From: Candidatus Magasanikiibacteriota bacterium
GTDB taxonomy: Bacteria > Patescibacteriota > Patescibacteriia > Magasanikbacterales > GWA2-37-8
Length of the DNA: 64,000 bases
NCBI GenBank assembly: GCA_041666745.1
Contig: JBAYGI010000002.1
Location: 36,291 to 100,290, forward strand
Reading direction: 5' to 3'
In this document: positions 3,546 to 62,800 of the stretch, one piece after another
Position numbering within the stretch: the stretch's first letter is position 1
Layout: the number at the start of each line of letters is the position of its first letter
Notes under the pieces: model-generated
What the model was told of the DNA's origin: nothing
The model's input: only the letters and a program-made list of their open reading frames with translations
Databases searched by the model: none
Made by a program: the position numbers and the translations under genes

Positions 3546-3812
3546 ATGGAAAAACAAGTAATTAAAAAAATAAGTCGAGAGTTTAAAGGTATAGTAACCA
3601 GCGCGGCAATGACTAAAACCATTACTGTGAAGGTTGATAGTATCAAAAAACATACAAAATATCCAAAAAGTTTTACTGTTAGTCGCAAGTATCATGTTCA
3701 TGATGAACAGCAAGTGGCTAAAGTAGGGGATAAAGTTCGTTTTGTAGAATGTCGTCCGCTATCGGCCACCAAACGTTGGAGACTGGTAGAAGTTTTAAAA
3801 GTTAATGGTTAA
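3546..3812 (+). CDS. rpsQ: 30S ribosomal protein S17
   Basis: ...GIVTSAAMTKTITVKVD...SRKYHVHDE...VGDKVRFVECRPLSATKRWRLVEVL; ATG at 3546, 14 nt after rplP stop; no room for rpmC between. Confidence 0.9.
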   Translation: MEKQVIKKISREFKGIVTSAAMTKTITVKVDSIKKHTKYPKSFTVSRKYHVHDEQQVAKVGDKVRFVECRPLSATKRWRLVEVLKVNG

Positions 3813-13766: not shown

Positions 13767-15866
13767 TTATTTAACCGGACATCGTTCTGCGCCTTTGGCT
13801 GGTGGTATACATGGAGACAACCCTGTATAACCGGTAATACGACAATAATTTCCAGCTTTTTGTGCTTCAAAATGCCAATTTTCGGCGCCATATCTTACAA
13901 AACCGGCGCTATACATAATAGCAGAGAGGGCGGATACTCCTTGTAGATTGGCGTTGCATTGTTTTGATGCACTGAAAGCGCCATCAGAAAATACTTTACC
14001 ATCTTTCATTAATACTAAATCTACCGCATATCCGGTACCATGTGGAGAATTACCCGGTTTAGCGACACTACCGGATTTTACTCCTCCGGGTTCTTTATCC
14101 GCCAATGCTTTTTGAGAAGCTATACTCCTACATTTTGATCTTACTGAAATTACATATCCTTGAGCTGCCGCTTTTTTACCAGCGTTCATTAATTTATCGG
14201 CCGTTATTTTTAAAACAAAATTTTCTCTTAGATCTTTTTTTGCGACTACTGATAACCCCGGACATTTATTGTTTTTGCATGCAGCCACCATGTCAACCCA
14301 ATTTGATGGGGGAGCGGCGGGGTTGATTTTATCACAAGCACCTTTTTCGCCTTCTACCACTCCGCCAGCCATACCGGCCATGCCAGCTTCCATATCTGAG
14401 GTGTCAACGTCGTCAGGAAGATCTTGTTGTTCGATATATTGTACTTTCAACGCCTGAAAATTCACCAAATCCGGATTGATGGTATATAAAATTGTATAAG
14501 ATCCCCACGCAATCAGTAACCCTACCACAATTTGCCCGATTTTTTTAAAACCGTTGACACGTTCTTCACCACCCATAACTGTTATTTTTACTCCTACTAC
14601 AATTATCATTATCACCCCAATAATACTGATAGCCACCATGGCTACTTTGTAAATCGCCGACATGTATTCACCAATGTATGGGAGATGGAGAAACCCCTCA
14701 TCGTCCACACTATTTTCTACATCACTAAATTTTAGTTGAGGAATATTTATTTCTAGAACCGGTTTTCTGATTTGCAAATCGGCTGTGACACCAAAAAAAG
14801 ATATCGAACTTTTATATTTTTTCATTGAAGCTTCATCTAACCAGCAATAATTATCTTTACAAATACCGATTCCATCAAGACCGCTACAGTCGTTATCTAC
14901 TTGGCATTTTTTGTCACTTTTTGTGCAGGTAGTTGAACCGCAATTCATCATATCAGCGAAAGAGGTAACGTTGTCGGAATCTTTATAGGCACACAAATGG
15001 TAACTACCATCCAAAAAACAAGCACCAGCTTTTCCACTAGCCTGGCAGTCGGAGTCACTCTTACACTCACCAATAATGGTTAAAGTTTCTTTTGGATAGC
15101 ATATTTTATTTACACATATGGATGTTATTATTATTTCCCCAGATGAACAATCAGATTGTTGCGTACAGGTTTTAGTTTTTATATTTTTTATACATTCATC
15201 GTAAGTTTTATACAAAGTATTTGATCCGCAGTCATCAATTTTATTAGAGATACATTTATCGTCTACTTTACAAAATTGTCCCGTAGAAACTGTGGTTTTT
15301 TTAGTTTCGCATTTTTCTGATGTCAAAGTAGATGAATCGCCAAAATTAGTTACACCAGCTTTATTAAGAAAGAATTTATTTATCGTTGCTGAACACCCAC
15401 CACCTTTTTCTACTGGTACAGGTGTACAAGAAAAAGCTTGGTTAGTTTTGTTGTATGTTAAACAGTAAAATTCTTCTATAGTTAAGGGGTCTTTTACAAA
15501 TTCGCCATTTCCTAATAACATTTTTGTGCTTCGGCAGTAGTGCAAATTATAATCAAATGATTTGAAAGGAGATTTTTCACATTTCCAATCGCCACCATCT
15601 TTTGGTGTACCATACTCTGTGGTGCAATCCTCGTCTTTGTAGCAAGTACAAAAATACTGATTTTTTCCATCTTTTGTTAAGGTGGTTTCTTCACAATCTA
15701 GGTTGGCTCCTCCATATTCGCAATCAGTGTTGAGAATATCACTTACGCAAGGATCCCCAATTTTACTTTTGGCGGCCATGGCGCTATTTGGCAAAAATAC
15801 CAAAGCGAAGATTATTGCAAAAAATATTTTTATGATATTTTTATTTTTTGTCATATCATTTAACAA
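13767..15866 (-). CDS. Secreted Cys-rich protein (~50 Cys) with two TM helices and C-terminal peptidase M15 (VanY / LAS-type D,D- or L,D-peptidase) domain
   Basis: Signal peptide MTKNKNIIKIFFAIIFALVFLPNSAMA; many C-x4-6-D-C modules; TMs at ~aa 400-450; C-terminal SPHGTGYAVDL and ENWHFEA zinc-ligand motifs typical of M15 family. Confidence 0.7.
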   Translation of the reverse strand: MLNDMTKNKNIIKIFFAIIFALVFLPNSAMAAKSKIGDPCVSDILNTDCEYGGANLDCEETTLTKDGKNQYFCTCYKDEDCTTEYGTPKDGGDWKCEKSPFKSFDYNLHYCRSTKMLLGNGEFVKDPLTIEEFYCLTYNKTNQAFSCTPVPVEKGGGCSATINKFFLNKAGVTNFGDSSTLTSEKCETKKTTVSTGQFCKVDDKCISNKIDDCGSNTLYKTYDECIKNIKTKTCTQQSDCSSGEIIITSICVNKICYPKETLTIIGECKSDSDCQASGKAGACFLDGSYHLCAYKDSDNVTSFADMMNCGSTTCTKSDKKCQVDNDCSGLDGIGICKDNYCWLDEASMKKYKSSISFFGVTADLQIRKPVLEINIPQLKFSDVENSVDDEGFLHLPYIGEYMSAIYKVAMVAISIIGVIMIIVVGVKITVMGGEERVNGFKKIGQIVVGLLIAWGSYTILYTINPDLVNFQALKVQYIEQQDLPDDVDTSDMEAGMAGMAGGVVEGEKGACDKINPAAPPSNWVDMVAACKNNKCPGLSVVAKKDLRENFVLKITADKLMNAGKKAAAQGYVISVRSKCRSIASQKALADKEPGGVKSGSVAKPGNSPHGTGYAVDLVLMKDGKVFSDGAFSASKQCNANLQGVSALSAIMYSAGFVRYGAENWHFEAQKAGNYCRITGYTGLSPCIPPAKGAERCPVK

Positions 15867-25374: not shown

Positions 25375-25599
25375 TTAGTTCTCAAAAAATTCATCCAAAG
25401 ATATTTCTGCTTGGCGCAATATATTTCTTAATGTACCGGGCGCTAATTCAGAGTGGTCTGGCACTATTACTGTGACGATTTTCCCATCTATGATTTTCCT
25501 TAATTTTTGGTGACTGCCTTTTTGCGATATCAAAACAAATCCTTTTTTATATAAAAAACTTAATATTTCTGATCCTGAAAAGTTGGCCAATCTGTTCAT
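25375..25599 (-). CDS. hicA: HicA-family mRNA interferase toxin
   Basis: ...KKGFVLISQKGSHQKLRK... YcfA/HicA GSH motif; ATG at 25599, 1 nt after hicB stop. Confidence 0.75.
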   Translation of the reverse strand: MNRLANFSGSEILSFLYKKGFVLISQKGSHQKLRKIIDGKIVTVIVPDHSELAPGTLRNILRQAEISLDEFFEN

Positions 25600-25600
25600 A

Positions 25601-25819
25601 TTAGGCCATCTCAAAATCCAATGTCTTAATCATTGGGTGTTCTTGGTATTGGTCTAAAAATTCTTTTGGCGCGTCTTCTAAATACAGTTCTATTGCTTCG
25701 CGTAAATTAGCTTCGGATTCCTCCAAGTTTTTTCCTTGAGAGGTTACCCCTAATTCGGCGCAAAAGGCAACATAGAATTTACCGTCAAAATGATAGGTTG
25801 TTGTTAATTTTAAAGTCAT
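25601..25819 (-). CDS. hicB: HicB-like antitoxin (UPF0150 fold)
   Basis: MTLKLTTTYHFDGKFYVAFCAELGVTSQGKNLEESEANLREAIELYLE...; ATG at 25819. Confidence 0.65.
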   Translation of the reverse strand: MTLKLTTTYHFDGKFYVAFCAELGVTSQGKNLEESEANLREAIELYLEDAPKEFLDQYQEHPMIKTLDFEMA

Positions 25820-25880
25820 AGTATTAACTTGTATTAATAAAGTGATTATACCATAATTCAGCAAAAAGTAAAATTGAATT

Positions 25881-26768
25881 TTACGCCATCCCACGTAGTT
25901 TTTTTATTCTATCTTCAATCGGTGGATGAGTGGAAAAAATTCCAGATAATTTTTTACCGGAAAACGGAGAAGAAATAAATAGGTGCGCGGTGGCTTGGGA
26001 GGTACGCGCCATTGGTATATTTTCTGCGCCAATTTTTTCTAATGCGCGTGCCAACCCTTCGGGGTAGCGGGTGAGCAAAGCACCACTGGCATCGGCCAAA
26101 TATTCACGACGACGAGAAACCGCCAATTTGATAAGTTCGGCAATAATAGGAGATAAAATAGCCAACACAATTCCAATAATCGCAAAAATAGCAAACGCAT
26201 CGCCACCCTCGCGATCACTACCGCGTCGGCGAAACATTCCACCGCGTAGAAAGATATTGGCCATAATGGAAACCGAACCAACCAAAACCGCGACCAACAT
26301 CATGAAACGAATGTCGTAATTTTTTATATGTGAAAGTTCATGCGCCAACACACCTTCCAATTCTTCGTTTTGTAATTTTTCAATCGCTCCGCGCGTAATG
26401 GCAATAGAAGCGGTGGCCGGATTGCGCCCGGTGGCAAAAGCGTTGATCGCACTTTCTTCCATGATGTAAATTTTTGGCATCGGCACGCCGGCGGTAATAC
26501 AGAGATTTTCTACCAGATGATAAACATATTTATTGTCGTCGTGTTCCAACGGTTTGGCACCACTGGTCCAGAGGGCGATTTTGTCTCCTTGGAAATATGA
26601 AATAGAGGTTATAAAAAGTGAAATAATCACGCCCAAAAAAAGCCCGCCATAGCCATCGCCACCATAACCGCGGTCAAAAACATAGCCCAAACCAACCACC
26701 AATCCAGCGGCGAGCATGAGTAAAAATATGGATTTTCGTTTGTTTGAGTCAATTTCTTGGTAGAGCAT
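25881..26768 (-). CDS. htpX: Zinc metalloprotease HtpX (peptidase M48)
   Basis: HELSHIKNYD HExxH motif, N-terminal TMs, 295 aa. Confidence 0.85.
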   Translation of the reverse strand: MLYQEIDSNKRKSIFLLMLAAGLVVGLGYVFDRGYGGDGYGGLFLGVIISLFITSISYFQGDKIALWTSGAKPLEHDDNKYVYHLVENLCITAGVPMPKIYIMEESAINAFATGRNPATASIAITRGAIEKLQNEELEGVLAHELSHIKNYDIRFMMLVAVLVGSVSIMANIFLRGGMFRRRGSDREGGDAFAIFAIIGIVLAILSPIIAELIKLAVSRRREYLADASGALLTRYPEGLARALEKIGAENIPMARTSQATAHLFISSPFSGKKLSGIFSTHPPIEDRIKKLRGMA

Positions 26769-26869
26769 AGTAATATTAATTTAACCATAAAAAAAGGGGG
26801 TTGTAAAGGTGTCGGGTTGACAAAATCAATTTTTTATCATAAAATAACATCACAAATAAATTACCAATT

Positions 26870-27106
26870 ATGTATAAAAACAATTTACAATTTTCCGTTG
26901 TTTATCAACAAGATGAAGATGGTGGGTTTATCGCCACTGTTCCGGCATTGCCGGGTTGCCATACTCAAGGTAAGGATTTACCACAAACAATATTGCGTAT
27001 AAAAGAGGCGGTAGATTTGTATATAGAAAGTTTGAAATCAGACAAATATATCCGTCAGGCAGCGCAAAGACAGGTATTAGTCGGCACTGTAATGGCAAAC
27101 GGTTAA
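26870..27106 (+). CDS. hicB: HicB-family antitoxin (UPF0150)
   Basis: ...FSVVYQQDEDGGFIATVPALPGCHTQGKDLPQTILRIKEAVDLYIES... classic HicB N-domain. Confidence 0.8.
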   Translation: MYKNNLQFSVVYQQDEDGGFIATVPALPGCHTQGKDLPQTILRIKEAVDLYIESLKSDKYIRQAAQRQVLVGTVMANG

Positions 27107-27107
27107 T

Positions 27108-27344
27108 ATGGTAAGTTTCAGTCAACTTCCAAATTTAAAAGCCAAGCAACTAATACATATTTTGGAAAAGATAGGTTTTGAAGTCGCAAGGCAAAAAGGC
27201 AGTCATGTAATTTTAATACACGAAAAAAGTAAATTACGCACGGTGGTGCCAATTCATTCAGGTGAAACAATCAAAAAATCTCTTTTGATGGAGATTGTAA
27301 AACAGGTAGGTTTATCAGTGGAAGATTTTTTGGAGTTGTTATAA
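27108..27344 (+). CDS. hicA: HicA-family toxin
   Basis: ...IGFEVARQKGSHVILIHEK...; 1-nt gap after hicB. Confidence 0.8.
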   Translation: MVSFSQLPNLKAKQLIHILEKIGFEVARQKGSHVILIHEKSKLRTVVPIHSGETIKKSLLMEIVKQVGLSVEDFLELL

Positions 27345-27387
27345 AAATTGTTAAAATCTATAAAATAAATTTGCGGACAAAGTTTAA

Positions 27388-27416
27388 AAAACACCGACTG
27401 CCAAGCCGGTGTTTTA
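27388..27416 (+). terminator. Putative terminator after hicA (AACACCG-loop-CGGTGTT + TTTT)
   Basis: 7-bp stem, 10-nt loop, T-run. Confidence 0.4.
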
Positions 27417-27433
27417 AATATGTGGACAAAAAT

Positions 27434-27463
27434 TTGACCAAATGCTTCGGGGGGGGGTAGAAT
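27434..27463 (+). promoter_or_regulatory. Sigma70-like promoter TTGACC-N18-TAGAAT whose spacer contains a G9 homopolymer tract (27449-27457)
   Basis: Hexamers read directly; ~40 nt upstream of ATG 27503; poly-G is exceptional in this AT-rich genome. Confidence 0.5.
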
Positions 27464-27502
27464 AGATGTGTTAAATATTTTTTTATTTTTTAATTAAATT
27501 AT

Positions 27503-28483
27503 ATGGTAGAAGGGTACAAACACAAACCATCATCAGTAGGAGATAAATTAAGAGGAGTTGCTGGTAGAATAGCGATGTTAGGAGGCGCGGCAGGTTTGCT
27601 TGGTGGCGTTGAACAGGTTGGTGAACACAGAGGAAAAGAGACTGCTCAAGAAAAAATTATGACAGGAAAAAATAAAAAAGAGGATAATACAAAAAATTTG
27701 GAGCAAGAAGTGGAAAATCGTCAGATGCATGTGATCAAAGAGATAGATCAATGTATACATGAATTAGAAAAAATCCCAAAAAATTTAAGTGTATCAGAAT
27801 TGTCTGATGTGACATTAAAAATGGAAAACATTCTTGATAATTATATTCAGTGGGCTTTTGATGATACTGGAGAACAAACAGATAATACAATTTTGATTTT
27901 AGGGAAAATACGCGAATTTGCTACAAAAATTGCCGAAGGACATGTTGATGAAGAAGATGAAAAAAACCAATTTAGAGCATTTATCACAGGAGATGGTGTG
28001 CTGGCCTACGAGGCAAAAAAAAGTCCGGATTTTAACATAATGGTTAATGAAGTAATAGCCAAAAAACGACTTGAGTTGATGGAATTTAAAAGATTATTTC
28101 TTACAGCTTTTAATAATAGGGATTTTCAAAGAGCAACAATTTACAGTCGTGATATTATATTCCTTGCGGAACAAATTTCGGGTTTGACTGCTAGTATGTA
28201 CTATGAAAAAGCAGACAGAGCAAAGTTTGGTAGTTATTATAGAAAAAGTGGAGAATTAGGTTTGGGAAGGGGTTTGGATTTGCATAGAGTCAGAGAACAT
28301 GTTAGTGAAATATCACAAGGTTCTCCAGAAGATTTTACTCGACCAGAATTTCTTACACCCCATGAAATAGATACTTTTATTGATATGCCAAAGTCAGGTT
28401 CGTCAAGAAAAACAGAAGAAGAAATCAGAATGCAAAAACAAGCCGATGAAAATAGTCGTGGCACGAGTCCGGCATTTGATTAA
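27503..28483 (+). CDS. Hypothetical protein (326 aa, no recognised domain), downstream of G9-tract promoter
   Basis: ATG ORF with host-like codon usage; acidic/Lys-rich; bracketed by promoter and strong terminator. Confidence 0.5.
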   Translation: MVEGYKHKPSSVGDKLRGVAGRIAMLGGAAGLLGGVEQVGEHRGKETAQEKIMTGKNKKEDNTKNLEQEVENRQMHVIKEIDQCIHELEKIPKNLSVSELSDVTLKMENILDNYIQWAFDDTGEQTDNTILILGKIREFATKIAEGHVDEEDEKNQFRAFITGDGVLAYEAKKSPDFNIMVNEVIAKKRLELMEFKRLFLTAFNNRDFQRATIYSRDIIFLAEQISGLTASMYYEKADRAKFGSYYRKSGELGLGRGLDLHRVREHVSEISQGSPEDFTRPEFLTPHEIDTFIDMPKSGSSRKTEEEIRMQKQADENSRGTSPAFD

Positions 28484-28488
28484 AAAAT

Positions 28489-28521
28489 AAAGCCGGCTTA
28501 CAAATAGCCGGCTTTATTTTT
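28489..28521. terminator. Bidirectional Rho-independent terminator (AAAGCCGGCT-tacaaat-AGCCGGCTTT flanked by A-run and T-run)
   Basis: Perfect 10-bp stem between convergent genes. Confidence 0.65.
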
Positions 28522-28538
28522 CATATTTTATAGAGGTT

Positions 28539-29891
28539 TTAAAGTACTAAATCTACACCTGCACTCCCGTCATAATTTTCAGGGTGAAATCGTTTATCAT
28601 TTTCTAAAACTAATTCTGTATCTTCCTCATTCCACAACCATCCAGTCGCGGTTAAAATCCAGTCTGGTTGAGCTGTATCTTCCATTAGTAGACTGGCATA
28701 TTCTCCGCGTTGTAAAACGGTATGCTTATCAAATGTTATTCCATACTGATCAATGATCGTCTGTAATTCTTCAAGTATTTTTTTATCGTCCCCATCCAAA
28801 TTAGTAGTATTGGTTTGAAATTTTATTTTTTGTTCAATGTATCGTTTTAATAAAAAATCGGCAACAGTCAAACTTCCTGTCTTGATCTCCTGCAAAAAGT
28901 CAAAAAAAAATTTCTTAGTTAACAAAAAGCTTTTTAATAGCTCTAATTTTTGTGTATCGTTTGCTGTCGTTTTTAGAAGATTAACAATTTTTTGACGGCC
29001 ATCAAATTTACTGTTTTCAGTTTCTGTTTCCGTTTCAGATTGTTGACCAATCATGTAATTTTTTGCTATCCTGATTTCATCTGCATCCAAATCATTCTTT
29101 GAAAGGATTTGATTTAGAAAATGTTCTCTTTTTTTATTAATAATTTCTCCTATAACCCCTGCCCTTTTAAGACGCATCGCCGGCTGATTATGTGAAGGAT
29201 CGGTTTTTTTGATAACATCTTTCACTAATTGGTAATCAGCTGGGGCCAATTCTTTTTTTGGGTCTTCGCTGGATAAATAAACGCGAGCGATTTCTGCCCA
29301 GTATTCAGTGGCTCTTCTAAGTTTCACATTCACATGGGAGTAAGATTCTTTAAAAATTTTATCCCAATCCACGTGTTCAACACGCTCAACATCATTGGAT
29401 ATATATCTATCTGGTGCTTGGCTACGCTCTATTACAGTTTTTTTAAAATTTTCTTTTTCTTCTGTGGTCATGCCGTTATTTGCTTCCCAATCATTGGCAT
29501 GTGCAATTTCATGTAAGAGAATGTTATCCCACAAATCATAATCGTTGTGATAGTGTGAATTTGATAAAATATAAATTTTACGTATATCTGGTGTGCTTAA
29601 ATTCGTTATATCGCGTATATGGATAGCTCTGGCACCTTGAGTAGATTGAGATAATGTTCCATAAGAACCTTCAAATCGTAATACAAAAATTTCTCCCAAC
29701 CAACCTTTTGGCACAGTACTTAAAATAGATGTTACCTGATCCTCTGTGACAGCAGCGTCAAATTTTTTTAAACCTCTCAAACAAATTTCTGGTCCTTCAA
29801 TTTCTGGTTTTACAATGTCAGGGGTTTCTAAAGGTTGTGTTGGTTTAGAAATGTGACTGTCAATATTTTGTGGTCTGCTTGTCTCGGGCAT
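28539..29891 (-). CDS. Hypothetical zincin-like protein with HExxH motif (NILLHEIAHANDWE), co-transcribed with lemA
   Basis: 450 aa, no signal peptide; HEIAH motif; start 4 nt after lemA stop. Confidence 0.5.
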   Translation of the reverse strand: MPETSRPQNIDSHISKPTQPLETPDIVKPEIEGPEICLRGLKKFDAAVTEDQVTSILSTVPKGWLGEIFVLRFEGSYGTLSQSTQGARAIHIRDITNLSTPDIRKIYILSNSHYHNDYDLWDNILLHEIAHANDWEANNGMTTEEKENFKKTVIERSQAPDRYISNDVERVEHVDWDKIFKESYSHVNVKLRRATEYWAEIARVYLSSEDPKKELAPADYQLVKDVIKKTDPSHNQPAMRLKRAGVIGEIINKKREHFLNQILSKNDLDADEIRIAKNYMIGQQSETETETENSKFDGRQKIVNLLKTTANDTQKLELLKSFLLTKKFFFDFLQEIKTGSLTVADFLLKRYIEQKIKFQTNTTNLDGDDKKILEELQTIIDQYGITFDKHTVLQRGEYASLLMEDTAQPDWILTATGWLWNEEDTELVLENDKRFHPENYDGSAGVDLVL

Positions 29892-29895
29892 ATTG

Positions 29896-30462
29896 TTAAA
29901 ACTTCACCTGCACGTTCTGTCTCTCACCCTCGGCTGCTTGGAAAAATTCGTATTTAGCAAATTTCAAAAAGCCGGCAAACATATTGGTCGGGAATGTCTG
30001 AATACTGGTATTGAAGTCGCGCACATTGCCATTGTAAAATCTGCGACTGGCTTGTATTTTATTTTCCGTATCCGAAATTTCATCTTGCAATTGCAAAAAG
30101 TTTTGGCTGGCTTTTAATTCCGGATAATTTTCTGTAACCGCAAACAAACTTTTTAAAGTAGAGGACAGAGCGTTTTCCGCTTGTTCGCGTTGTGCCAATG
30201 TCGCGCCGGAATTGTCGTGTACCGCCATCGCCGAGGTGCGTGCTTCGGTCAATTTTACCAATGTCTCGCGTTCGTGGGTCATATATCCCTTCACGGTTTC
30301 CACCAAGTTTGGGATAAGGTCGTATCGGCGTTTGAGCTGGACATCAATATCAGAAAAGGCCTCGTCCACGCGGTTTTTCCCGCGCACCAGACCATTAAAA
30401 ACGGCAATTATCCAGATTAGCACTATTGCCAGAACCGCTAAAATAATATAAAGTATAGGCAT
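29896..30462 (-). CDS. lemA: LemA family membrane protein
   Basis: N-terminal TM then ...FNGLVRGKNRVDEAFSDIDVQLKRRYDLIPNLVETVKGY... LemA signature. Confidence 0.8.
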   Translation of the reverse strand: MPILYIILAVLAIVLIWIIAVFNGLVRGKNRVDEAFSDIDVQLKRRYDLIPNLVETVKGYMTHERETLVKLTEARTSAMAVHDNSGATLAQREQAENALSSTLKSLFAVTENYPELKASQNFLQLQDEISDTENKIQASRRFYNGNVRDFNTSIQTFPTNMFAGFLKFAKYEFFQAAEGERQNVQVKF

Positions 30463-50018: not shown

Positions 50019-50840
50019 ATGAAAAATAGATGGTTAAACTTAGTGTTGCTTTTAACCAATCGGATTTACACCAAGAAACAGCTGATAATAGAACAAAGCG
50101 GGTTGGGGGCAGTTTATAATATTTTTCTTTTGATCGTCCTAGAAATAGTGCTGGCGGTTATTTCTTTACCTCTTTATATCAGTCTTCGCTCCGCTTCGGT
50201 CACGGCATTTTTATCTGAAAAGGGGAGTTATGCCAAAGTAGATTTCGATTACAATATTCGACGTATTCTCACTTTGACCGGTGTTGGTATCGTGGCGTTG
50301 ATTTGGGTGATTAAATTATCGCTCATTATTTTGTTACCAAAAATTTATGGCCCATTACCGCTTTATGTGGTGACTGATTTTCGACCGGCGGATATTTTGT
50401 CCAAAGAATTGGTGATGGCTGAGACGGGCATCCAGACAGCGCGTATTATGAAAACAATGCCCAAACCGGAAGTGACCGGAGTAACCAAATTAAAAGGCGG
50501 TGATTATACTTTTTTGGGTACCGGCCAACCAAATTCCACAGTGATTTTGTTATTGACTGACAAACAAACGGCCATTTATTCAGGTTTGACTGATAAGAGC
50601 GGTAAGTGGGAAATAGACTATTCTCAGAGTAAATTCAAACTCGGTCCGGGCAATCATTCGGTGATCGTTTTTGGTTATGATCAAAAGCTCGGAGTACGCA
50701 GTGAAACCGGTTTGGAGCAATTTTTTAAGGTGCAGACTTCTTTGATGGACAGTTTGGTTGCTAATGTAGATGTGCTGGCCAATTGGTCCGTGGTAATTAT
50801 TATTTTACTGGGAGTATTTTTGACTTTTTTAACTTTATAA
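50019..50840 (+). CDS. Membrane protein with N-terminal 2-TM anchor module (shared with giant protein), one Ig-like domain and C-terminal TM
   Basis: N-terminus MKNRWLNLVLL...IVLAVISLPLYISL...RRILTLTGVGIVALIWVIKL parallels giant-protein N-terminus. Confidence 0.5.
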   Translation: MKNRWLNLVLLLTNRIYTKKQLIIEQSGLGAVYNIFLLIVLEIVLAVISLPLYISLRSASVTAFLSEKGSYAKVDFDYNIRRILTLTGVGIVALIWVIKLSLIILLPKIYGPLPLYVVTDFRPADILSKELVMAETGIQTARIMKTMPKPEVTGVTKLKGGDYTFLGTGQPNSTVILLLTDKQTAIYSGLTDKSGKWEIDYSQSKFKLGPGNHSVIVFGYDQKLGVRSETGLEQFFKVQTSLMDSLVANVDVLANWSVVIIILLGVFLTFLTL

Positions 50841-50841
50841 T

Positions 50842-53800
50842 ATGGCCACTCGTTGGCTCAATTTTTTCTTTCGTTTTTCCGGATATGTTTTTGGTTTAAA
50901 ACAAAAGATTGTTAAATCAGATAGTTTGTGGAAAGTTATTCCCGAAGCCATTTTTTTGCTTTTGTTAGAATTTAGTTTTGCGATAGTTTCTTTGCCGATG
51001 TATTTACTGGTGCCACCGGAAAAAGTACAAGAGACCGGCGCTATTTTTCCTAGCGCAAATAAAGAAAAACCTCAAATTAGCACCTATGTTGTCAGACGAA
51101 AAATCAGTTTGGTCACTACTTTGAGCGCGGCTATAATATTTTTTTCTAAATTAATTTTTGTTGGGATTGTTTCTTTTTATTTGTTGGGCGCGCAACAACT
51201 TTTGGCGTCTACCCAAGATTGGGATTTTACCACTTCTTCTCAATATATTACCAGCAGTTCATCGATTGAATTTGTTGGCGGAACTGCGCAATTAAAAGAT
51301 TTAGGGGCTACTGTTACCGGTTCTACTATCAACGCCGGCGTTACTACCACTGGTAATAACTGGGCATATAATGATTGGACAGACCCATCAAATGTGGTCG
51401 TGGGTGGAACTAGGCAGACATCCAATGGAAATCCGGGACCATACTTAAATGTGAATATTGCGATCACCGGTTCGGCAACCCAAAATAGAACAGGCGCCGG
51501 CTATTGGACGCAATCATTTGTTACTACGGTCGCCTCGCCAGACACAGCCACTTTGAATTTGGATTGGAAGTCCATTACCTATACATCACCAACTGCTCCA
51601 GCCACTTATCGGCTATATGCTTTTATTGATACATCTCCCACTACGACTCCACCCTCGTCCACCAGCACCGCGGTTTGGAATAGTGGGGAAATCACCGGTA
51701 CTACCAATTGGGCAAGTATTTCAGCAGTGAATATCGCCAGTAAAGTTCCAACAGCCGGTACCTATTATTTAAAAATTGCCGCCTATGCCACTAGTCCAAA
51801 AGTGGCTACAAGTTTTTCCTATATTTCCGGTTTTGACAATATTATTGTAAATTGGTCAAAGGTTACCCATGTTTATGATTCTACAAAACCAACTGTTACC
51901 CCGAGTAGTTCGTTGACCATGGCCAAGACGGTGAGTTGGAATTCTTTTGCTGAAACAGCGACAAAAAATGGTGGTGAAATTTATTATCAATTAACCGGAG
52001 ATGATGGCAGTACTTGGAAATATTGGAATGGTTCGGCTTGGGCTACGGCCAGTGCGTCAAATTATAATATTGCCACCGATGTAAATACTTATATTGGTAG
52101 TTTTGCGACCAGTAGTAACCAAATTAAATTTAAAGCATTTTTATCCAGTAGTGGCAGTCAGCAGGTGATTTTGGACAATGTGGCGATTGGTTACACGGAA
52201 AATTTACCACCGACAGTGGCAAATTTAGCGCCGGCGCAAAACATACAAAATGGGTATGTATTTGTAAATTATAATTTACAAGATACCGAAAGCGATCCGT
52301 CCAGTTTAGTCAATTATGAATATTCATTAACCGGTGCGTTTGCCGGTGAACAGGTGGCGATGACCGCCTCGACGACTGACCCGGCACATAGTGGTATTTC
52401 AAATTTGACCACATCACCGGCAGGGGTGGCGCATACTTTTGTTTGGGATGCCAAATCACAGTTGGGGGCAGTATACAACACCAGTGTATATGTAAGAATG
52501 CGCGGTAACGACAGTATCCAAAGTGGCGCCTATACGACTTCGACGGTATTCACGGTAGATTATGTAAATCCAGTAGTAACAAATGTTTCGGCGACTCAAC
52601 CTTTGAATACTACAACCGTGCAAATCAGCTATGATCTTTCTGACAATACAACAGATAATTTATTTACAGATTTTCAAGTGTCTGGTGATGGTGGATCTAC
52701 TTGGGCGGTCGCGACTTCATCCGCCAGCGGAGCGGTTGGTAGCGGAGTAACCGCTGGAGCAGGCAAAATAATCTATTGGAATGCCGGTACAAATTATGGT
52801 GGTCATCAGCAAAGTAATATGCAGGTGCGTGTGCGAGCCAAAGATAAATGGCAAAATATTGATGGGTTTGTTACTTCGACCAATTTTTCATTGGATACTT
52901 TGGCGCCAGCGACTTTGGTAACTGCGGATTTAAAAGCTCAACCAAATGCGGGCGATACGACGGTTTTAATTGGTGGCAGTTTCACTGAAGTAAATCCAAG
53001 TACCAATACTTTTTATGCGGCAGTGACCGGTGGCGCTTATGATGGCGCTACTATCGGCACTCTCAATTCCGCCAGTCCTTCGAATCAAGCGACAACGGTA
53101 ACGACATCTCTCAAAGGCAATGATTATATTTCCAAAGTAAAAATCACCCATACGGATAAATATGGACAATCTTTTGATAATGAAAATACATCACCAAGCA
53201 CCACTTTTAAATTTGTAAAACCATACACACCGGCCGCACCAACTTTATCTAACCCGATAACTACTCATTTGGATTTGGTGGTGAATTCAAATGTAAACGA
53301 AGCTAGTGGTTTGGAATATGCTATTTATGAAACCACGACGGCGAAATATGTCCAAAGTAATGGGACACTCGGTGTGTCGGCCGTTTGGCAAACTTCCGTG
53401 GCTTGGGGCACCAAAACCGTAACTGGTCTATCTTCACCGGTTTCACAATATATTTTTCAAGTAAAATCTCGCAATACTTCAGATGGCGCGCATGCTGTTT
53501 CGTCTGAATCGGCATTTTCGGCGACCGCTCAAATTCCGAACACAGCTCCGTCAATCGCTTTAAATACTTACGCTCAAACTACAGATGGCACTGATTATGT
53601 GACGATTGCCTACACCGGTACCGATGGTCAAGGTGATATTAGTGGTGTACCGACCTACCAATATTCTACCGATAATGCAACGTGGCATACTATGACACAA
53701 AAATCCGGTGTGGGAAGTAGTGGAACTTCCAGTTTGGTATTTTTACCAACCGGTAGCGCTTATAATTTTGCTTGGGATTCAAATGCTGATTTACCGACTG

Positions 53801-56800
53801 TCGAAACTTCCACAACAAAAATCCGTTTGAAACCAAATGATTCTTTGATTGACGGTAGTACGGTAACATCAAACGCGTTTACGGTTGATCATAAGGCGCC
53901 GGTAATTTCAGCCGTGACCGCATTGCAGGGTGCAGGTACACGCACGGTAACTTTTTCATATACTCTAACAGATGCAAATACTTCTTTTGTAGATTTACAA
54001 GTTTCAAATGATGGCGGTATGACTTGGGCGATTGCAACTTCAACTGTGAGTGGAAGTGTAGGGGCGGGTGTAACACCAGGGGCAGGGAAGATAATTACTT
54101 GGAATGTGGCAACAGATTTCAACGAACAGTACAATACCAACATGAAAGTGCACATTCGGGCGCGCGATAGTTTTGGTAACCAAGGTGTATATGATCCATC
54201 TTCCCCGTTTACTGTGGATACTCATGCACCGGTGATTTCCAATATTACAGCTGTTCAGGACTCATCCGCTGACACCTTTACTTTTCATTATGATATCAGT
54301 GAGGATGCCAGCAACTCGACTTTGGTGCTTGCCATTTCATCCAATGGCGGTTCAACTTGGGTGGTGGCCACTTCTACCGCTACCGGAGATATTGGTTCAG
54401 TCGCGAATGGCACGAATAAAACTATTACTTGGAACGGCGCGACCGATTTCGCCGATCAAGAAAAAACCAACATGCAAATTCGTTTGACTGCGAACGATCA
54501 ATATGACAATAGTAGTAATTTGGCTTCAGGTAATTTTAATTTGGATACTTATGCGCCACGCGTGACGGCGGTGAGTGGACTCCAATCTACTGGAAATACC
54601 ACTGTCGGTTTTTCTTATACTTTGACCGATCAAAATAGTTCTTTGGTGCAGATAGATATTTCTTCTGATGGTGGTTCGACTTGGAATGTGCCTTCTTCCA
54701 GTCTCACCGGTGATATTGGCAATGTCAGTCCGGGTTCAAAATCTATCACTTGGAATGCGAAAACAGATTTTTCAAATCAACAAATCAGCAACATGCGCGT
54801 ACGCGTACGCGGTAAAGATATTTTCAACAATCAATCCGGAAATACAACCTCGACAAATTTTTCTTTAGATACTCTAAATCCGGCTTCATTAGTAATAACA
54901 GATTTGAAAGCTCAGCCATTGGCTGGTGATACGGCGGTTTTAATCGGCGGATCATTTACCGAGGTAAACCCGAATACCAATATTTTTTCTGTGGCTATTG
55001 ATGGTGGGTCCTATGGTTCCGGTGTTGCCGGTACCGTAAATACCGCCTCTCCGTCTGATCAATCAACCGCGGTGGGTGTTACTTTAAAAGGCAATGATTA
55101 TATTTCCAAAGTAAAAATTACTCATACTGATGATTATGGTCAAGCGACCGATAATGAAAACACCTCACCAAGTACAACTTTTAAATATGTAAAACCATAT
55201 ACACCGGCCGCTCCAACCGTGGACAACCCAACAGTTGGTACGGTTGATGCCTTGATTAATAAAAATGTAAATGAAGCGGATGGTTTGGAGTACGCGATTT
55301 ATGAAACTTCACAAAGTAAATATGTTCAAGCCAACGGTACTTTGGGAACAGGAGCGGTATGGCAACCGTTGGGTGTGTTGGTAGGACAGTGGGGAGAATT
55401 TTTATCAGTGTCCGGAAAAGTGCGAGTAAATAGTTTGGCTACTCATTCTTATCTTTATCAATTTGAAATAAAATCACGCAATAGTAGTGATGGAGCGCAC
55501 TTGACCAGTAGTGAGAGCGCATTTTCTGCCGGCGCATCGTCTGCCAATCAGTCGCCGGTGATTACGATAAATTCGGCCAGCCAAACCACTGACGGTAGTA
55601 AATATATACCAATTAATTATACCGGTTCTGATTTGGAAAGCGAAACAAATGTTTTGGTAAAATTTGAATATTCCACTGATAATTCCAACTGGCACACAAT
55701 GACTGAAAAATCCGGTGTGGGAAGCAACGGTACCACCGGCTTAGCTTTTGTTTATACCGGCACCGCGCATTTATTTGCTTGGGATGTTGGCACGGATTTA
55801 GCCAACACTGAAGACAACACAGTATATGTACGTTTGCAAGCCAACGATGGTACAAGCAGTGGCAATGTTGCAACCGTATCGGCATTTACCGTGGATACCA
55901 AAAACCCATCGATTGCTTCACTGACCGCCAATCAAGTCTTGGGTCTACATAATGTATCCATCGGTTATAATCTGACAGATTTAAATACATCCACAGTGAT
56001 ATTAAATATTTCATCTGATGGTGGTTCGACTTGGAATATTACTTCTTCAACAGTGAGTGGGGCGGTGGGAGTGGGAGTGACACCGGGTGATGGCAAGAGT
56101 ATTACTTGGAATGCGTTGGCGGATTTTGCCAATCAGGAAAGTTCAAACATGAAAGTGCGTCTGCGCGCGACTGATAGTTTTGGTAATCAAGATATATTTG
56201 TAACATCATCTGCTTTTATCGCCGATACCAAAGTTCCAGTGGTTAGCAATGTTTCAGCAGTACAAAATAGCGGTAATAATTTTGTGACTGTGGGCTACGA
56301 TCTGTCTGATGCCAGCACGTCAACGGTTTACTTGGAAGTTTCATCTGACAGTGGGTCGTCTTGGACGGTTACATCTACCAATGTTAGTGGAAATGTCGGC
56401 GCGAACGTGACACCGGGAAGTGACAAAACAATTACTTGGAATGCCGGCATAGATTTTCCAAGTCAACAAGTAGCTACCATGAGAGTACGTGTTAAAGCTA
56501 CAGATGTTTATAATAATGCCGGTGAAAATACGGAGTCGGCAGATTTTGCCTTGGACAGTAAAGCGCCACTTTTGACAAACGTATCGGCCGCGCAAGTAAT
56601 CGGTTCAGACAATTTTAATTTTACGTATGATTTATTTGACAGCGCAAATGTAATAATTTCTTTGGACATTTCTTCCAACGGCGGTTCTACTTGGACAGTG
56701 GCGACATCTAGCTTGTCTGGAGCAGTTGGATCCGGTGTAGCTCCCGGTTTTGGAAAAACTGTTTCTTGGAACGGTGCGGTTGATTTCAACAGTCAGCAAA

Positions 56801-59800
56801 AAAATAACATGAAAATTCGAATTCGGGGTACTGACATTTTCAATAATACCAGTATAAATTTTGAATCAGATGTATTTAATTTGGATACTTTGGCACCAGC
56901 TACCGCAATCGGTGTTGATGTAAAATCTCAACCCAATGCCGGAGACACAACTGTATTGGTCGGTGGATCATTTACTGAAACAAATCCATCTGCCAATATT
57001 TTTGTAGTGGCGATTAATGATGGTGCTTATGTCGCTTCGACTACCGGTCAGTCCGGTACTGCCACCCCAGCGGATCAAGCAACCGGGGTTGGGACAACAT
57101 TGACCGGCAGTGATTATATTTCCAAAGTAAAGATAGTGGAAACTGATAATTTTGGTCATAATTCTACCAATGAAAATACCTCACCAAATACAACTTATAA
57201 ATATGTAAAACCGTATACACCATCCGCGCCGACTGTAAATAATCCACAAAATACTTCTCTTGATGTGACAGTAAATGCAAATATTAGTGAATCATCCACG
57301 GTTGAATATGCAATAATGGAAGTTTCTACCAATAAGTATGTTCAAACCAATGGTACTTTGGCCAGTAGTACAGTTTGGAAAACTTTGGGCGTTGGAGCCG
57401 GTCAATGGGGGAATACCAGTGGAGTATCGGGAAAAATTACTGTCAGTAGTTTGAATTCTCCGGTAGCAAATTATAGTTTCAAAGTAAAGTCGCGCAATCC
57501 TTCTGATGTGGCGCATGCTATTAGTAGTGAAAGTGATTTTTCTAATATTACTACTATTACAAATAGTGCGCCAACAATTTCGATTGTGTCTGCTAGTCAG
57601 TCCAACAATACCAATTATGTTGTAATTAATTACACCGGTACGGATGGGCAAAATGATACCAACAATTTAACCGGTTACCAATTTTCAACCAACACTACAA
57701 ATTGGTTTACAATGACCGAAAAATCCGGTGTGGGTAGCAGTGGTACAAATAATTTAATTTTTAGTTCGACCGGCACCGCCTTTAATTTTGCTTGGAACAT
57801 CGCGGTAGATTTACCAAATACGGAAGTGCCGACCGTTTATGCGCGCTTGCAATCCAGCGATACTTTGGCTAGTAGTAATTTGGCAGTGTCCTCAGCTTTT
57901 TCAGTCGATACTGTCGGGCCGGTTGTTTCCAATATTCTTGTTAGCCAAACTCCAAATACAAACAATGTCGTGATCAATTATGATTTGTCAGATAATTCAG
58001 GAAGTAACAATACGGTAATTTTGCAAATTTCTTCAAACGGTGGTTCGACATGGACAGTACCTACCACAACTTTGAGTGGCGAAGTAGGAACCGGAGTTAG
58101 TGTTGGTACCGGTAAGACTGTAATTTGGAACGTCGGTGTAGATTACAACAATCAAGAAAACGATGTGATGAAAGTGCGTATAGTTGGTATTGATCGTTTT
58201 GACAATATTGGAAGCTTTGTTTCTTCAGATGATTTTACAGTGGACACCAAAGCGCCAGTCGTGAGTATTGATTCCATTATACAGGAGGCTGGCGATGGGG
58301 TAATTGACGTCTCATATGATATTTCTGATCATACCATGTCGGGAAATTTTGTAGATATGCAAATTTCAGATGATGGCGGTGCTACTTGGAATGTAGTGAC
58401 TACTACTGTAGGTGGTGATATTGGTGCCGGTGTGCCATCGGATGGTGAAACTTTTGATTGGAACGCTAAAGTTGATTTTCCAAATCAAGAACAATCCGAC
58501 ATGAGAGTGAAAGTAAGAGCCAGAGATTACTTTGGCAACCAAGGTGTATTTGTTTCATCAGGAAATTTTTCAGTGGATACCAAAGGACCGGTGGTTTCAT
58601 CGGTGACCGCTTCACAATCTACCGGTACCTCCACTATTACTATTAATTATAATTTAACTGATTTAACCGCCTCAAATTTAGATGTTATTCTTGATGTTTC
58701 AGATGACGGTGGATTTTCATGGACGGTGGCTACCACCACTCTCGCGGGAAATATTGGTGGGTCACAAACAACCGGCAGTGGAAAAACAATCACCTGGAAT
58801 TCAAACGTAGATTATCCTGGAATATATAACACGGCAATGCAGGTACGCGTTCGTGCTATTGATACTTGGAATAATGTTGGCAGTAATGAGGCTTCTTCAA
58901 ACTTTACAGTTGATACAGCAGTTCCTTCTATTTCCAATATTACCGCTTCACAAACAGTTGGATCCAATAGTGTAACAGTTCATTATGATCTTTCTGATGA
59001 CACCACAACCAATCTCACGGTAGCTTTGGATATTTCTTCGGATAATGGATCTACATGGACAGTCGCTACTACCACATTATCCGGAAATATTGGCAGTGGT
59101 CAAACGACTGGTGTAAACAAAACAATTACTTGGAATGCCGGAATTGATTTTGCTAATCAATACAATACTGTAATGAAAGTTCGTGTCCGAGCGCTTGATT
59201 ATTATACCAATTTTGCCAGTGCAATTTTGGGAACTGCTTTTACTCTTGACACCAAGAATCCGGTTGTTTCAAATGTAGTCGCGGAACAAACTGTGGGTAC
59301 GACCAACTTTGTGATTAACTATGATCTAAATGATGATAACATTTCCAATCTGACAGTAGCTCTGGATATTTCTTCGGACAATGGTTCTACCTGGACAGTC
59401 GCTACTAGTACATTGTCCGGCAATGTCGGTGTAGGTCAGGATGTGGGTACAAACAAAGCAATCACCTGGAATGCTGGAACGGATTACAATTCTCAATATA
59501 AAACACAAATGAAAGTGCGCGTGAGAGCGGTTGATAACTATTCCAATTCAAGTGGTAATGTTAATTCAAGTGCCTTTGGGTTGGACACCAAAAATCCTAT
59601 CATCAGCAATCTCACTGCCATACAAAATGTTGGTTACAATAATGTGGTGATTGGTTATGATTTAACAGAGGACACTACTTCAAGTATTGTGGTTGCTTTG
59701 GATATTTCCAACAACAGTGGTTCTACTTGGACAGTGGCGACTACCACTCTGACTGGCAATATTGGAAGTGGTCAAACTGCGGGTAACGGTAAAAGTATAA

Positions 59801-62800
59801 TCTGGTATGCGGATACTGATTTTGACAATCAATACAAAACCGGCATGAGAGTTCGTTTGCGAGCTATTGATATTTTCAATAATCAAAGTGGTGACACAGA
59901 AACTTCCGACTTTACTTTGGATACCGCCAATCCGGTTGTTTCCAATGTCATAGCCGGTCAAACTTTGGGTTCGGATAGTGTTACAATAAATTATGATTTA
60001 GCTGATAATTCTACAGACAATGTTTTGGTCGTTTTGGATGTTTCATCTGACAATGGTTCTTCATGGACGGTAGCTACTTCTTCTTTGTCCGGTGATATCG
60101 GAACAAGTCAGACGACCGGTTCAAATAAATCAGTTACTTGGAATGCCGGAGGGGATTTTGGTGAGCAGTACAACAACAACATGCAAGTTCGTGTGCGAGC
60201 AATGGATAAATTTACCAATTGGGGTACTTATGTAAGTTCCTCAAATTTCATGGTTGATACCAAAGCGCCGGTTATTTTAACTTTAGCGAATTTGAAGGCT
60301 CAGCCTAATGCCGGCGACACCACAGTTTTGATCGGTGGAAACTTTTCTGAAGATAATCCGGACACCAATGATTTTTACGTGGCAAATAATGGCGGGAGTT
60401 ACAGTGTGGCCACGGCAGGAGATAATAATACCGCCAACCCGTCTGACCAAATCACTGCTGTCGGCTCAACCTTGAAAGGCAGTAGCTATATTTCTAAAGT
60501 AAAGATATTACATACGGATGATTTTGGAAATATAAAATCAAATGAAAACATTAATCCTGCCAGTGGTTATAAATATGTAAAACCATACACACCGGCAACT
60601 TTGACAGTAAATAACCCTACTTCCAGTTCGGTAGACGTCGCAGTGAATAAAAATACCAACGAAGTGTCAGGTTTGGAATATGCGATTTATGAAAATTCAA
60701 CCGGTAAATATGTGCAGACAGATGGCACGCTCAATACTGATGCCGTTTGGCAAACCGGAGCAAGTTGGGGTACAAAAACTGTGATCGGTTTGAGTTCACC
60801 TGTGTCCGTTTATGTTTTTCAAACCAAATCCAGAAATAGCGCCGATACTGCTCATGCCACATCCAGCGAGAGTTCTTTGTCCGCTGGTGCTTCGGCCGGT
60901 AATAATTCACCGGTAATTTCTATAAATTCTGTTGTCCAAAGCGCAGGCTCGAATTATGTGATGATCAATTATACCGGTTCAGATAATGAAAACGATGTGG
61001 TAAATTTGGTCAACTACGAATATTCATTAAATGATGTCGATTGGTTTGCGATGACCGAAAAATCCGGTGTTGGCAGTGATGGTAAAACCAATTTGGCCTT
61101 TACTTCCGGTGGAACGGCATTGGTATTTGCTTGGAATGCAGGCGCTGATTTATCTAATGTAGAGGATGCATCGGTGTATATTCGTCTTAGAGGTAATGAC
61201 GGTGTCCTTAATGGCAATTTGGAACAAAGTTCCGCTTTTGCGCTGGATTTGAAAGTACCAACCATTAGTAATATTAGCGCGAGTCAAGTAATTGATAGTA
61301 GTACAGTCGCTATCGCTTATGATTTATCTGATCTCACCGCTACAAGCAATACAGTTGTAATGGATATTTCTTCAGACAATGGATCGACTTGGACAATAGC
61401 GACTACAACCTTATCCGGTAATATTGGCAGTGGACAAAATGTTGGGGTTGGAAATACCATTAGTTGGAATGCGGGAGTAGATTTTGCTGATCAATATAGT
61501 ACACAAATGAAAGTTAGAATACGAGCGGTTGATTATTATGGAAATCAAAACGGCAGTGTTGTTTCAGGAGCCTTTACGGTTGATACCGCCGCTCCAATAA
61601 TAACCAATGTATCAGCTTCACAAATTTCCAACACCAACAATGTATCAATAACTTACGATTTGGCTGACACAAATAATTCAACCGTGGCAATTGATATTTC
61701 AGAAGATGGTGGGTCAACTTGGGCAGTAACCGATATTTCAGTTGCCGGTAATATTGGAGCGGGTGTTGCGCCGGGTACCGGTAAAACAATTGTTTGGAAT
61801 GCCGGCACGGATTTTGGCGGGCAATCACAATCGGATATGCGTGTGAGAGTGAGAGCTACTGATACTTATGGAGAAACTAGCGCCAATGTGTCATCGGCAA
61901 ATTTCTCGGTTGATACCGCTGTTGCTTTGTTGACAAATGTTTCGGCTACTCAGTCTATTGGATCAACCAACGTGATAATAAATTATGATTTAGCAGATTC
62001 AAATAATTCAACCGTTGTGATTGATATTTCTGATGATGGTGGATCAACATGGACCGTCACGGATACTTCTGTTTCCGGAAATATTGGCACCGGTGTCACA
62101 CCTGGCAACGGTAAATCTATAACTTGGAACGCTGACACGGATTTTGATTATCAATATCAAACAGATATGCGTGTGAGAGTACGCGCGACTGATGTGTATG
62201 GCAATCAAACCGCATATGTTGAATCTTCCAATTTTATTTTGGACACGGATAATCCGGTAGTAACAAATGTGGCTGTGGCGCAGACGGTTGGAACAAAAAA
62301 TGTAGTTATTACATATGATATCGCGGAAAATAATAATTCAACTGTGGCGATTGATATTTCAGAAGACGGTGGATCAACATGGACCGTCACGGATACTTCG
62401 GTTTCCGGAAATATTGGCGCCGGTGTCACACCAGGCACGGGTAAATCTATCACTTGGAATGCCGGCGCTGATTTTAATGGGCAGGCACAATCCGACATTC
62501 GAGTTAGAGTTCGAAGTGTAGATATTTTTGGTAATCAAGGAAATTATATCGAATCAAATAATTTTGCTCTGGACACTGCCACTCCGGTGATATCAAATAT
62601 TTCAGCCGGTCAATCGGCAGGTAGTAATAATGTAACTGTGGTCTATGATTTATCTGACGACAATACTTCCAATCTCAATGTTGCGTTGGATATATCTTCA
62701 GACAATGGGGTTACTTGGACGGTAGCGACCAGTACGGTGAGTGGCAATATTGGCGGTAGTCAAACCGCCGGTTTTGGAAAGAGTATTTCCTGGAATGCCG

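Follow-up and report, generated by a model that had tools for sequence, protein, structure and literature searches.

Does a run of nine G residues between the −35 and −10 hexamers of a promoter act as a slippage-prone switch of the gene that follows, or is it read in some other way? The question is raised by a locus of a Candidatus Magasanikbacteria MAG, which belongs to the Candidate Phyla Radiation (CPR), or Patescibacteria: ultra-small, mostly uncultured episymbionts with many genes of unknown function, whose regulation of transcription is barely known. The stretch of DNA that was analysed (64 kb, hereafter the window) lies in a 163.5-kb contig of this MAG, and its initial annotation had interpreted the tract as a candidate phase-variable switch of an ORFan gene. 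The mechanism invoked there is indeed an established one: in porA of Neisseria meningitidis and in tp0126 of Treponema pallidum, a poly-G tract lies between −35 and −10, and a spacing of 17 nt is optimal (PMC7864442). Overall, we found the interpretation partly supported: switching is plausible, with a serious rival.

The G9 promoter and its genomic setting

The features of the locus are the following (positions in the window):

25881-26768, minus strand: HtpX gene
26769-29895, strand not applicable: lineage-specific island of 3.1 kb, between HtpX and LemA
26870-27106, plus strand: HicB (Pfam HicB_lk_antitox, E = 1.7e-7), upstream neighbour in the same island
27108-27344, plus strand: HicA (Pfam HicA_toxin, E = 7.8e-20), upstream neighbour in the same island
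27390-27416, plus strand: terminator-like hairpin, ACACCGA...CGGTGT and then TTTT, which ends the HicBA transcript 18 nt upstream of the −35 hexamer
27434-27439, plus strand: −35 hexamer TTGACC, whose TTG recurs in the related loci L003 and L010 with unchanged spacing to the G tract
27440-27457, plus strand: spacer of 18 nt, aaatgcttc followed by G9 (letters: aaatgcttcGGGGGGGGG)
27449-27457, plus strand: G9 homopolymer, in the 3' half of the spacer and adjoining the −10 hexamer
27458-27463, plus strand: −10 hexamer TAGAAT, ending 39 nt before the ATG of the 326-aa ORF
27468-27476, plus strand: GTGTTAAAT box, at the inferred transcription start (about 27468-27471), with agat between it and the −10 hexamer
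27503-28483, plus strand: 326-aa ORFan (NCBI WCT11_01455, hypothetical protein)
28483-28521, strand not applicable: bidirectional terminator, perfect over 16 bp, common to the ORFan and the convergent 450-aa gene
28539-29891, minus strand: 450-aa hypothetical protein with a HEIAH (HExxH) motif, convergent with the ORFan and 4 nt downstream of LemA
29896-30462, minus strand: LemA gene

The presence of G9 in an 18-nt spacer of a −35/−10 pair was confirmed at 27434-27463. The initial annotation had also called the run striking, and it is the sole G/C run of at least 7 in the window, where the runner-up is a single G6 (21138). The genome had been described as strongly AT-biased; with a G+C content of about 39%, its bias is moderate. 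The consensus promoter scan scored TTGACC/TAGAAT at 10/12 with an 18-nt spacer, which is the best sigma-70-like match of its intergenic region, and a promoter is predicted there. The qualification of this promoter as strong is backed by its position and by its recurrence (see below) and not by the score itself, since hexamer matches of at least 10/12 are reached by chance in 4-9% of 158-nt pieces. Considered by itself, apart from the recurrence, the G9 site would be suggestive, not compelling.

These figures bear on the simplest alternative, namely that the tract is a chance G run, or an assembly or sequencing artefact, with no function. Besides the 4-9% of such intergenic pieces that carry a 10/12 promoter match, the expected number of G runs of at least nine per 64 kb, which ranges from 0.06 (iid) to 0.18 (first-order Markov), leaves some room for chance, and poly-G artefacts exist, as exemplified by a G18 at the end of a related contig (L047). 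Against an artefact, unique sequence surrounds the tract on both sides and three assemblies agree on it: the MAG deposited at NCBI, the Logan assembly of SRR6484324 (7.6 kb), and a contig of JGI 3300037810 (1.5 kb) are 100% identical over the locus and all read G9. Each of these assemblies is a consensus, and the three probably represent a single population.

Among the promoter matches of at least 10/12 found in the window before operon-leading genes, the other four have 17-nt spacers and the G9 promoter alone has 18. The loss of one G, a change envisaged in the initial annotation, would indeed give a 17-nt spacer, the norm of the other four best matches of the window.

The surroundings of the promoter are coherent with an independent transcription unit. 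The hairpin at 27390-27416 was found as an inverted repeat and by RNA folding (−15.3 kcal/mol, z = −2.2); having only four T, it was not called by the consensus terminator scan. The leader of the 326-aa ORF is AT-rich and carries no Shine-Dalgarno sequence, as is the case for almost all of the 52 gene starts. The Rfam search of 27200-27700 returned sub-threshold matches only (at most 26 bits, vs gathering scores of at least 40), and no Rfam family (tRNA, rRNA, riboswitch) reached its gathering score anywhere in the window. Two other roles of the tract were considered and rejected: as a minus-strand element, it has no minus-strand gene there to serve, and as a transcribed 5'-UTR or reiterative-transcription element, it has no plausible promoter upstream. 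We also observed an 83% near-copy of the −10/start region (GGTAGAATAGcgATGTTA vs GGTAGAATAGATGTGTTA) at 27563-27580, 107 nt downstream and within the ORF; lying just 5' of an in-frame ATG (27575), it may be due to chance or mark an internal start.

The gene behind the promoter had been annotated as an ORFan of 326 aa with no recognisable domain, and both statements held. Searches against Pfam, PHROG, PADLOC and NCBIfam gave no match for the protein, and no PDB entry scored better than E = 0.1. It retrieved only itself among 5.8 billion clustered proteins and, by exhaustive phmmer search, among 1.84 billion representative proteins; tblastn-confirmed searches of metagenome and viral contigs gave no relatives. 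Scored for codon usage, its own frame reaches +0.30, while the five alternatives are all below zero. This resembles the other genes of the genome, and such native-like usage suggests that the ORFan is probably a real gene. The single-sequence AlphaFold model (pLDDT 46.7) is unreliable. Neither a signal peptide nor clear surface features were found in the protein; the manual hydropathy estimate for residues 18-36 was weak.

The possibility that the ORFan is the third gene of the HicAB operon was rejected, given the 158-nt gap containing the hairpin, the T run and the ORFan's own promoter; the second HicAB pair of the window (25375-25894) is not followed by such a third gene. The two HicB/HicA pairs flank HtpX, one on the minus strand (25375-25894) and one on the plus strand (26870-27344). 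The former is kept in L002 and L003, while the latter belongs to the window-specific island. On the other side of the ORFan, the HEIAH motif of the 450-aa protein is zinc-metalloprotease-like. Only distant homologues of this protein were found, in Patescibacteria (at most 28% identity), it matched no family and no PDB entry, and no tract like G9 was found near the homologues, whose hosts are higher-GC Patescibacteria.

The island interrupts a gene pair that is otherwise compact. By tblastn synteny, LemA and HtpX are about 15 nt apart or less in L058, L004, L006, L008 and L026, and the HtpX proteins of close relatives are 73-81% identical. The LemA-HtpX junction appears as a hot spot of lineage-specific insertions in Magasanikbacteria: it holds HicBA, the ORFan and the HExxH protein in the window, two unrelated genes in L003 (91-1803), a DGR-like RT and Avd pair in L005 (6537-10003), and no insertion in the five loci just listed. 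Only short AT-rich chance repeats were found in the search for direct repeats or target-site duplications flanking the island. For the orphan genes of the islands, nothing was returned by searches against family, defence, phage and PDB collections, and among the island proteins of the window, L003 and L010 there was no PHROG match, and no integrase or other phage gene. As a separate observation, an ORF with no stop over more than 4,389 codons runs from 50833 to 63999 (plus strand) and past the right end of the window, being an incomplete giant protein gene; because it runs off the window, the mechanical ORF lists contain no long ORF there.

Recurrence of the module in Magasanikbacteria

The initial annotation had indicated orthologous loci in relatives as a check. 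No such loci exist, and the check took another form: the same G9/18-nt design is present in two other genomes, before unrelated genes. We surveyed all the G/C runs of at least 8 in 80 related loci (1.38 Mb; 1.44 Mb with the window). In these 1.44 Mb, runs of lengths 4 to 7 number 3398, 726, 106 and 12, and runs of lengths 8 to 11 number 3, 4, 1 and 1. The counts flatten at 8-11, and runs of at least nine are thus well above the extrapolation from shorter runs. Three of the four G9 runs share one arrangement, i.e., a −35 hexamer, 9 nt, G9 adjoining TAnAAT, and then GTGTTwAA. The three promoters read, from the −35 hexamer to the box:

Window: TTGACC, aaatgcttc, G9, TAGAAT, agat, GTGTTAAAT
L003 (CALRIA010000038.1; minus strand, C9 at 3620-3628): TTGACA, actaactgc, G9, TAAAAT, aaca, GTGTTTAAT
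L010 (CAZXML010000002.1; minus strand, C9 at 14944-14952): TTGCTA, ataggtgtt, G9, TAAAAT, taaaa, GTGTTAAT

The pattern TAnAAT-N3-6-GTGTT[AT]?AA occurs at exactly three sites in the 1.44 Mb (both strands), each of them after a G9, and no other G/C run of at least 7 lies in a promoter spacer there. Abutment on a −10-like hexamer is found for 3/4 G9 runs vs a background of about 0.5% of G4-G5 runs adjoining TAnA[AT]T. The recurrence of the composite motif in two other genomes effectively refutes chance, and we regard a chance run or an artefact as very improbable. That L003 and L010 are contaminants from the same organism is excluded by the 70-79% identity of HtpX among the three genomes. Exact flank and DNA pattern scans of metagenome and genome contigs for the window site gave no other copy. 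We regard the promoter module as very probably real.

The remaining long runs of the survey are of different kinds. In L005 (7632-7641), a G10/C10 tract occupies a 43-nt divergent gap between the Avd and RT genes of a diversity-generating retroelement; it lacks the −35/−10 geometry and was rejected as a member of the module, and it may act on the 5' UTRs instead. The G18 of L047 (11669-11686), at the contig end, is probably a sequencing artefact. Two further tracts, a G9 just downstream of HtpX in L068 (10915-10923) and a G11 about 800 nt downstream of HtpX in L081 (11674-11684), are non-coding and without promoter geometry. A hairpin resembling the HicA terminator, upstream of the L010 promoter, was discarded as a coincidence, as it is inside a conserved coding region.

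A shared design can also be explained by descent. The three promoters could be diverged copies of one mobile promoter that carried a G run by chance, hitch-hiking with no function and not yet decayed. This would be coherent with three observations: the promoters of the window and L003 can be aligned for about 94 nt, a stretch that reaches 11 nt into the ORFs (ATGGTAGAAGG, MVEG); nhmmer detects L003 when the full region is used (E = 8e-4); and the closer genome, L003, has the more similar promoter. Beyond the shared start, though, the window and L003 ORFs have nothing in common, and with either flank used without the tract, nhmmer detected neither L003 nor L010, so the surroundings are by now close to random with respect to each other. 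The tract, as the most mutable element, has instead stayed pure and exactly nine long in all three, the opposite of what neutral decay predicts. Hitch-hiking is, in our view, improbable. That the most mutable element is the best conserved argues for selection on the tract, which we consider likely.

All three G9 promoters head insertions that are missing from the nearest relatives. The window cassette, in the LemA-HtpX island, consists of the promoter (27434-27463), a single ORF and the terminator (28483-28521). The L003 cassette spans about 480 nt (promoter, 107-aa ORF and terminator) between HicA and acetyl-CoA synthetase, and its insertion site measures only about 75-82 nt in the window and L002. 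The L010 insertion is larger, with four ORFs over 3.77 kb between genes separated by 12 nt in L011. The proteins downstream of the three promoters show no homology to each other and none belongs to a family; the ORFs of L003 and L010, joined into one query, gave no match, not even to themselves, which means that those proteins are absent from the searched collection. A phage moron is an autonomous unit of promoter, ORF and terminator that has been inserted between two conserved genes. The window ORFan and the 107-aa ORF of L003 resemble morons in having their own promoter and terminator and in being inserted between otherwise adjacent genes; unlike morons, they have no prophage context or phage families and lie in a bacterial chromosome, between housekeeping genes.

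The same recurrence also counts for a reading that competes with the switch. The tract could be a fixed, sequence-specific element of a promoter class, in which G9 and GTGTTwAA are read by a dedicated sigma or transcription factor, or via a G-tract structure beside the −10 hexamer. It would mark the promoters of mobile or phage-derived cassettes, and changes of length would be deleterious accidents. Tract length (9), distance to −35 (9 nt) and abutment on −10 are identical in three diverged genomes, while the neighbouring bases differ, including the nine that separate the tract from the −35 hexamer; no fourth site with the composite motif exists in the 1.44 Mb, and each of the three heads an inserted cassette. 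On the other hand, no recognition factor for such a tract is known to us, no integrase or other phage gene is present in any of the three islands, and a G9 is unstable by nature, so that the need for a fixed length would be a costly design. An uninterrupted tract kept across related lineages, as seen in the three genomes, is expected where mutability is selected for, but a fixed element predicts it as well.

G tracts beside the −10 hexamer in phages

Looser scans of viral contigs for the Magasanikbacteria motif returned 0 and 5 unrelated matches. Two groups of viral sequences carry G tracts in a comparable position, and neither had a match in the GenBank phage collection.

The first is a phage family (among the viral loci L086-L141, about 47% G+C) with the promoter-like site TTGACT-tcggagta-Gn-TAGAAT, in which the flanks of the tract (aagccttgaaattgcTTGACTtcggagta-Gn-TAGAATtgta) are near-identical. 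Seven contigs have G8, 19 have G9 and two have G10, giving spacers of 16, 17 and 18 nt. Judging from these contigs, the family would be a good candidate for a phase-variable phage promoter. Its polymorphism indicates that such tracts vary in nature, which counts for a slippage switch, and weighs against a fixed element in that one such promoter exists in forms from G8 to G10.

The second is a 208-kb contig, IMGVR_UViG_3300015214_000001 (L089, L096, L111, L127, L136, L139), with 26 G runs of 7-9 in the 49 kb of it that were analysed, or about one per 2 kb. Sixteen of the 26 adjoin TAnAAT, most of them after TTGACAaataNNc. The distance to TTGACA is variable, and spacers are 15-18 nt where a TTGAC −35 is present. 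Here, the G tract beside −10 looks like the hallmark of a promoter class, rather than a set of many individual switches. Like the G9 module, these promoter-like sites combine TTGACA, a short variable stretch, G8-9, and TAGAAT or TAAAAT. Unlike the module, they are present in dozens of copies in one genome, have spacers of 15-18 nt, and lack the GTGTTwAA box; moreover, the downstream genes have Shine-Dalgarno sequences, which implies a different host type, and there is no sequence relationship to the window. This contig bears on the fixed element in both directions. A G8-9 adjoining a −10-like hexamer about every 2 kb means that classes of G-tract-plus-(−10) promoters exist, but the tolerance of both G8 and G9 and of 15-18-nt spacers means that an exact length is not needed there.

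A possible slippage switch or fixed element, and the meaning for CPR biology

The mechanism that we propose for the window starts from a sigma-70-type module (−35 TTGACC, 9 nt, G9 adjoining −10 TAGAAT, the box at the start, and an AT-rich leader of about 30-40 nt), which would drive a self-contained, lineage-specific orphan cassette within the LemA-HtpX island. The tract would set the −35/−10 distance at 18 nt. Replication slippage of G9 would then generate G8 (17 nt) and G10 (19 nt) sub-populations, and the cassette would be expressed heterogeneously, as from a tunable contingency promoter of the porA/tp0126 type.

Several observations are relevant to this slippage switch. The 17-nt spacers of the other four best promoter matches count in its favour, since G8 would give the optimum. 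The consensus of G9 in all the assemblies is compatible with switching, considering tprL of T. pallidum, where G9 predominates in every strain although tract lengths from 7 to 11 occur within isolates (PMC7864442). Conversely, all three Magasanikbacteria promoters have exactly G9 and an 18-nt spacer, and free switching would more likely show differing lengths. A sequence-specific promoter class is also suggested by the GTGTTwAA box, a further conserved element, and this counts against a switch, as do the lack of length differences among the three assemblies, which is in line with a fixed element, and the nature of the downstream gene, an ORFan without clear surface features. A last point against a switch is that the source is probably a landfill metagenome, with no host immune pressure evident; the sole basis for this is one paper on landfill viruses that mentions JGI 3300037810 once.

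Weighing this evidence, we lean towards an appreciable heterogeneity of tract length in the population. That switching is a selected function rather than a by-product is a more tentative proposal, and the fixed element is held just as tentatively: the two readings are nearly equal, with hitch-hiking and chance or artefact well behind.

The comparison with known systems is informative in both its likenesses and its differences. As in porA, a G tract of about 9-11 nt is inside a sigma-70 spacer and its length sets the spacing (PMC7864442). Unlike in porA, where length variation and its effect on expression were experimentally shown, the window is known from sequence alone; the gene there is a known surface porin of a host-restricted pathogen, while here it is an ORFan of an environmental CPR bacterium; and here the tract adjoins −10 in a design common to the promoters of unrelated genes. 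The tp0126 and tpr genes (E, G, J, L) resemble the present case in that a small-genome bacterium has several poly-G promoters. The tpr genes, however, are paralogues that share a promoter from gene duplication, while the genes downstream of the G9 module are unrelated; in tprL, moreover, the tract overlaps the −10 region and leaves the spacing unchanged, and its variation was measured by fragment-length analysis.

Other repeat-in-promoter switches include the poly-C of Bordetella fim, the poly-A of Mycoplasma hyorhinis vlp and the TA repeats of Haemophilus influenzae hif. In these, slipped-strand mispairing of a simple-sequence repeat in or beside the promoter spacer modulates transcription, as is proposed for the G9 module, although repeat type and organism are different. 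To our knowledge, all of these repeats control known surface structures and none has been reported from Patescibacteria. The term 'Patescibacteria' together with 'phase-variable' was not found in the literature searched, and none among the matches listed for 'Candidate Phyla Radiation' combined it with phase variation. The combination of a conserved composite module, unrelated orphan cassettes, constant abutment on −10 and a CPR host is unlike every described case that we know of.

On a wider scale, in Magasanikbacteria and possibly in CPR widely, the G-tract module may put newly acquired or newly born orphan cassettes under hypermutable on/off control, or G8-9 beside −10 may be an undescribed promoter class that a specific factor reads both in CPR cassettes and in some large phages; at this breadth, we consider the generalization doubtful. 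If the former were true, it would amount to a 'phasome' for accessory ORFans, whose contingency loci would be the first on record for the Candidate Phyla Radiation, and to a simple sequence signature for contingency or accessory genes, e.g., those of host or phage interaction. If the element were instead a fixed recognition element, the new promoter class, shared with some large phages, would help to annotate the transcription units of CPR bacteria and phages. Should the module with its unstable G9 hold, it would offer a first entry point to stochastic (bet-hedging) gene control in CPR.
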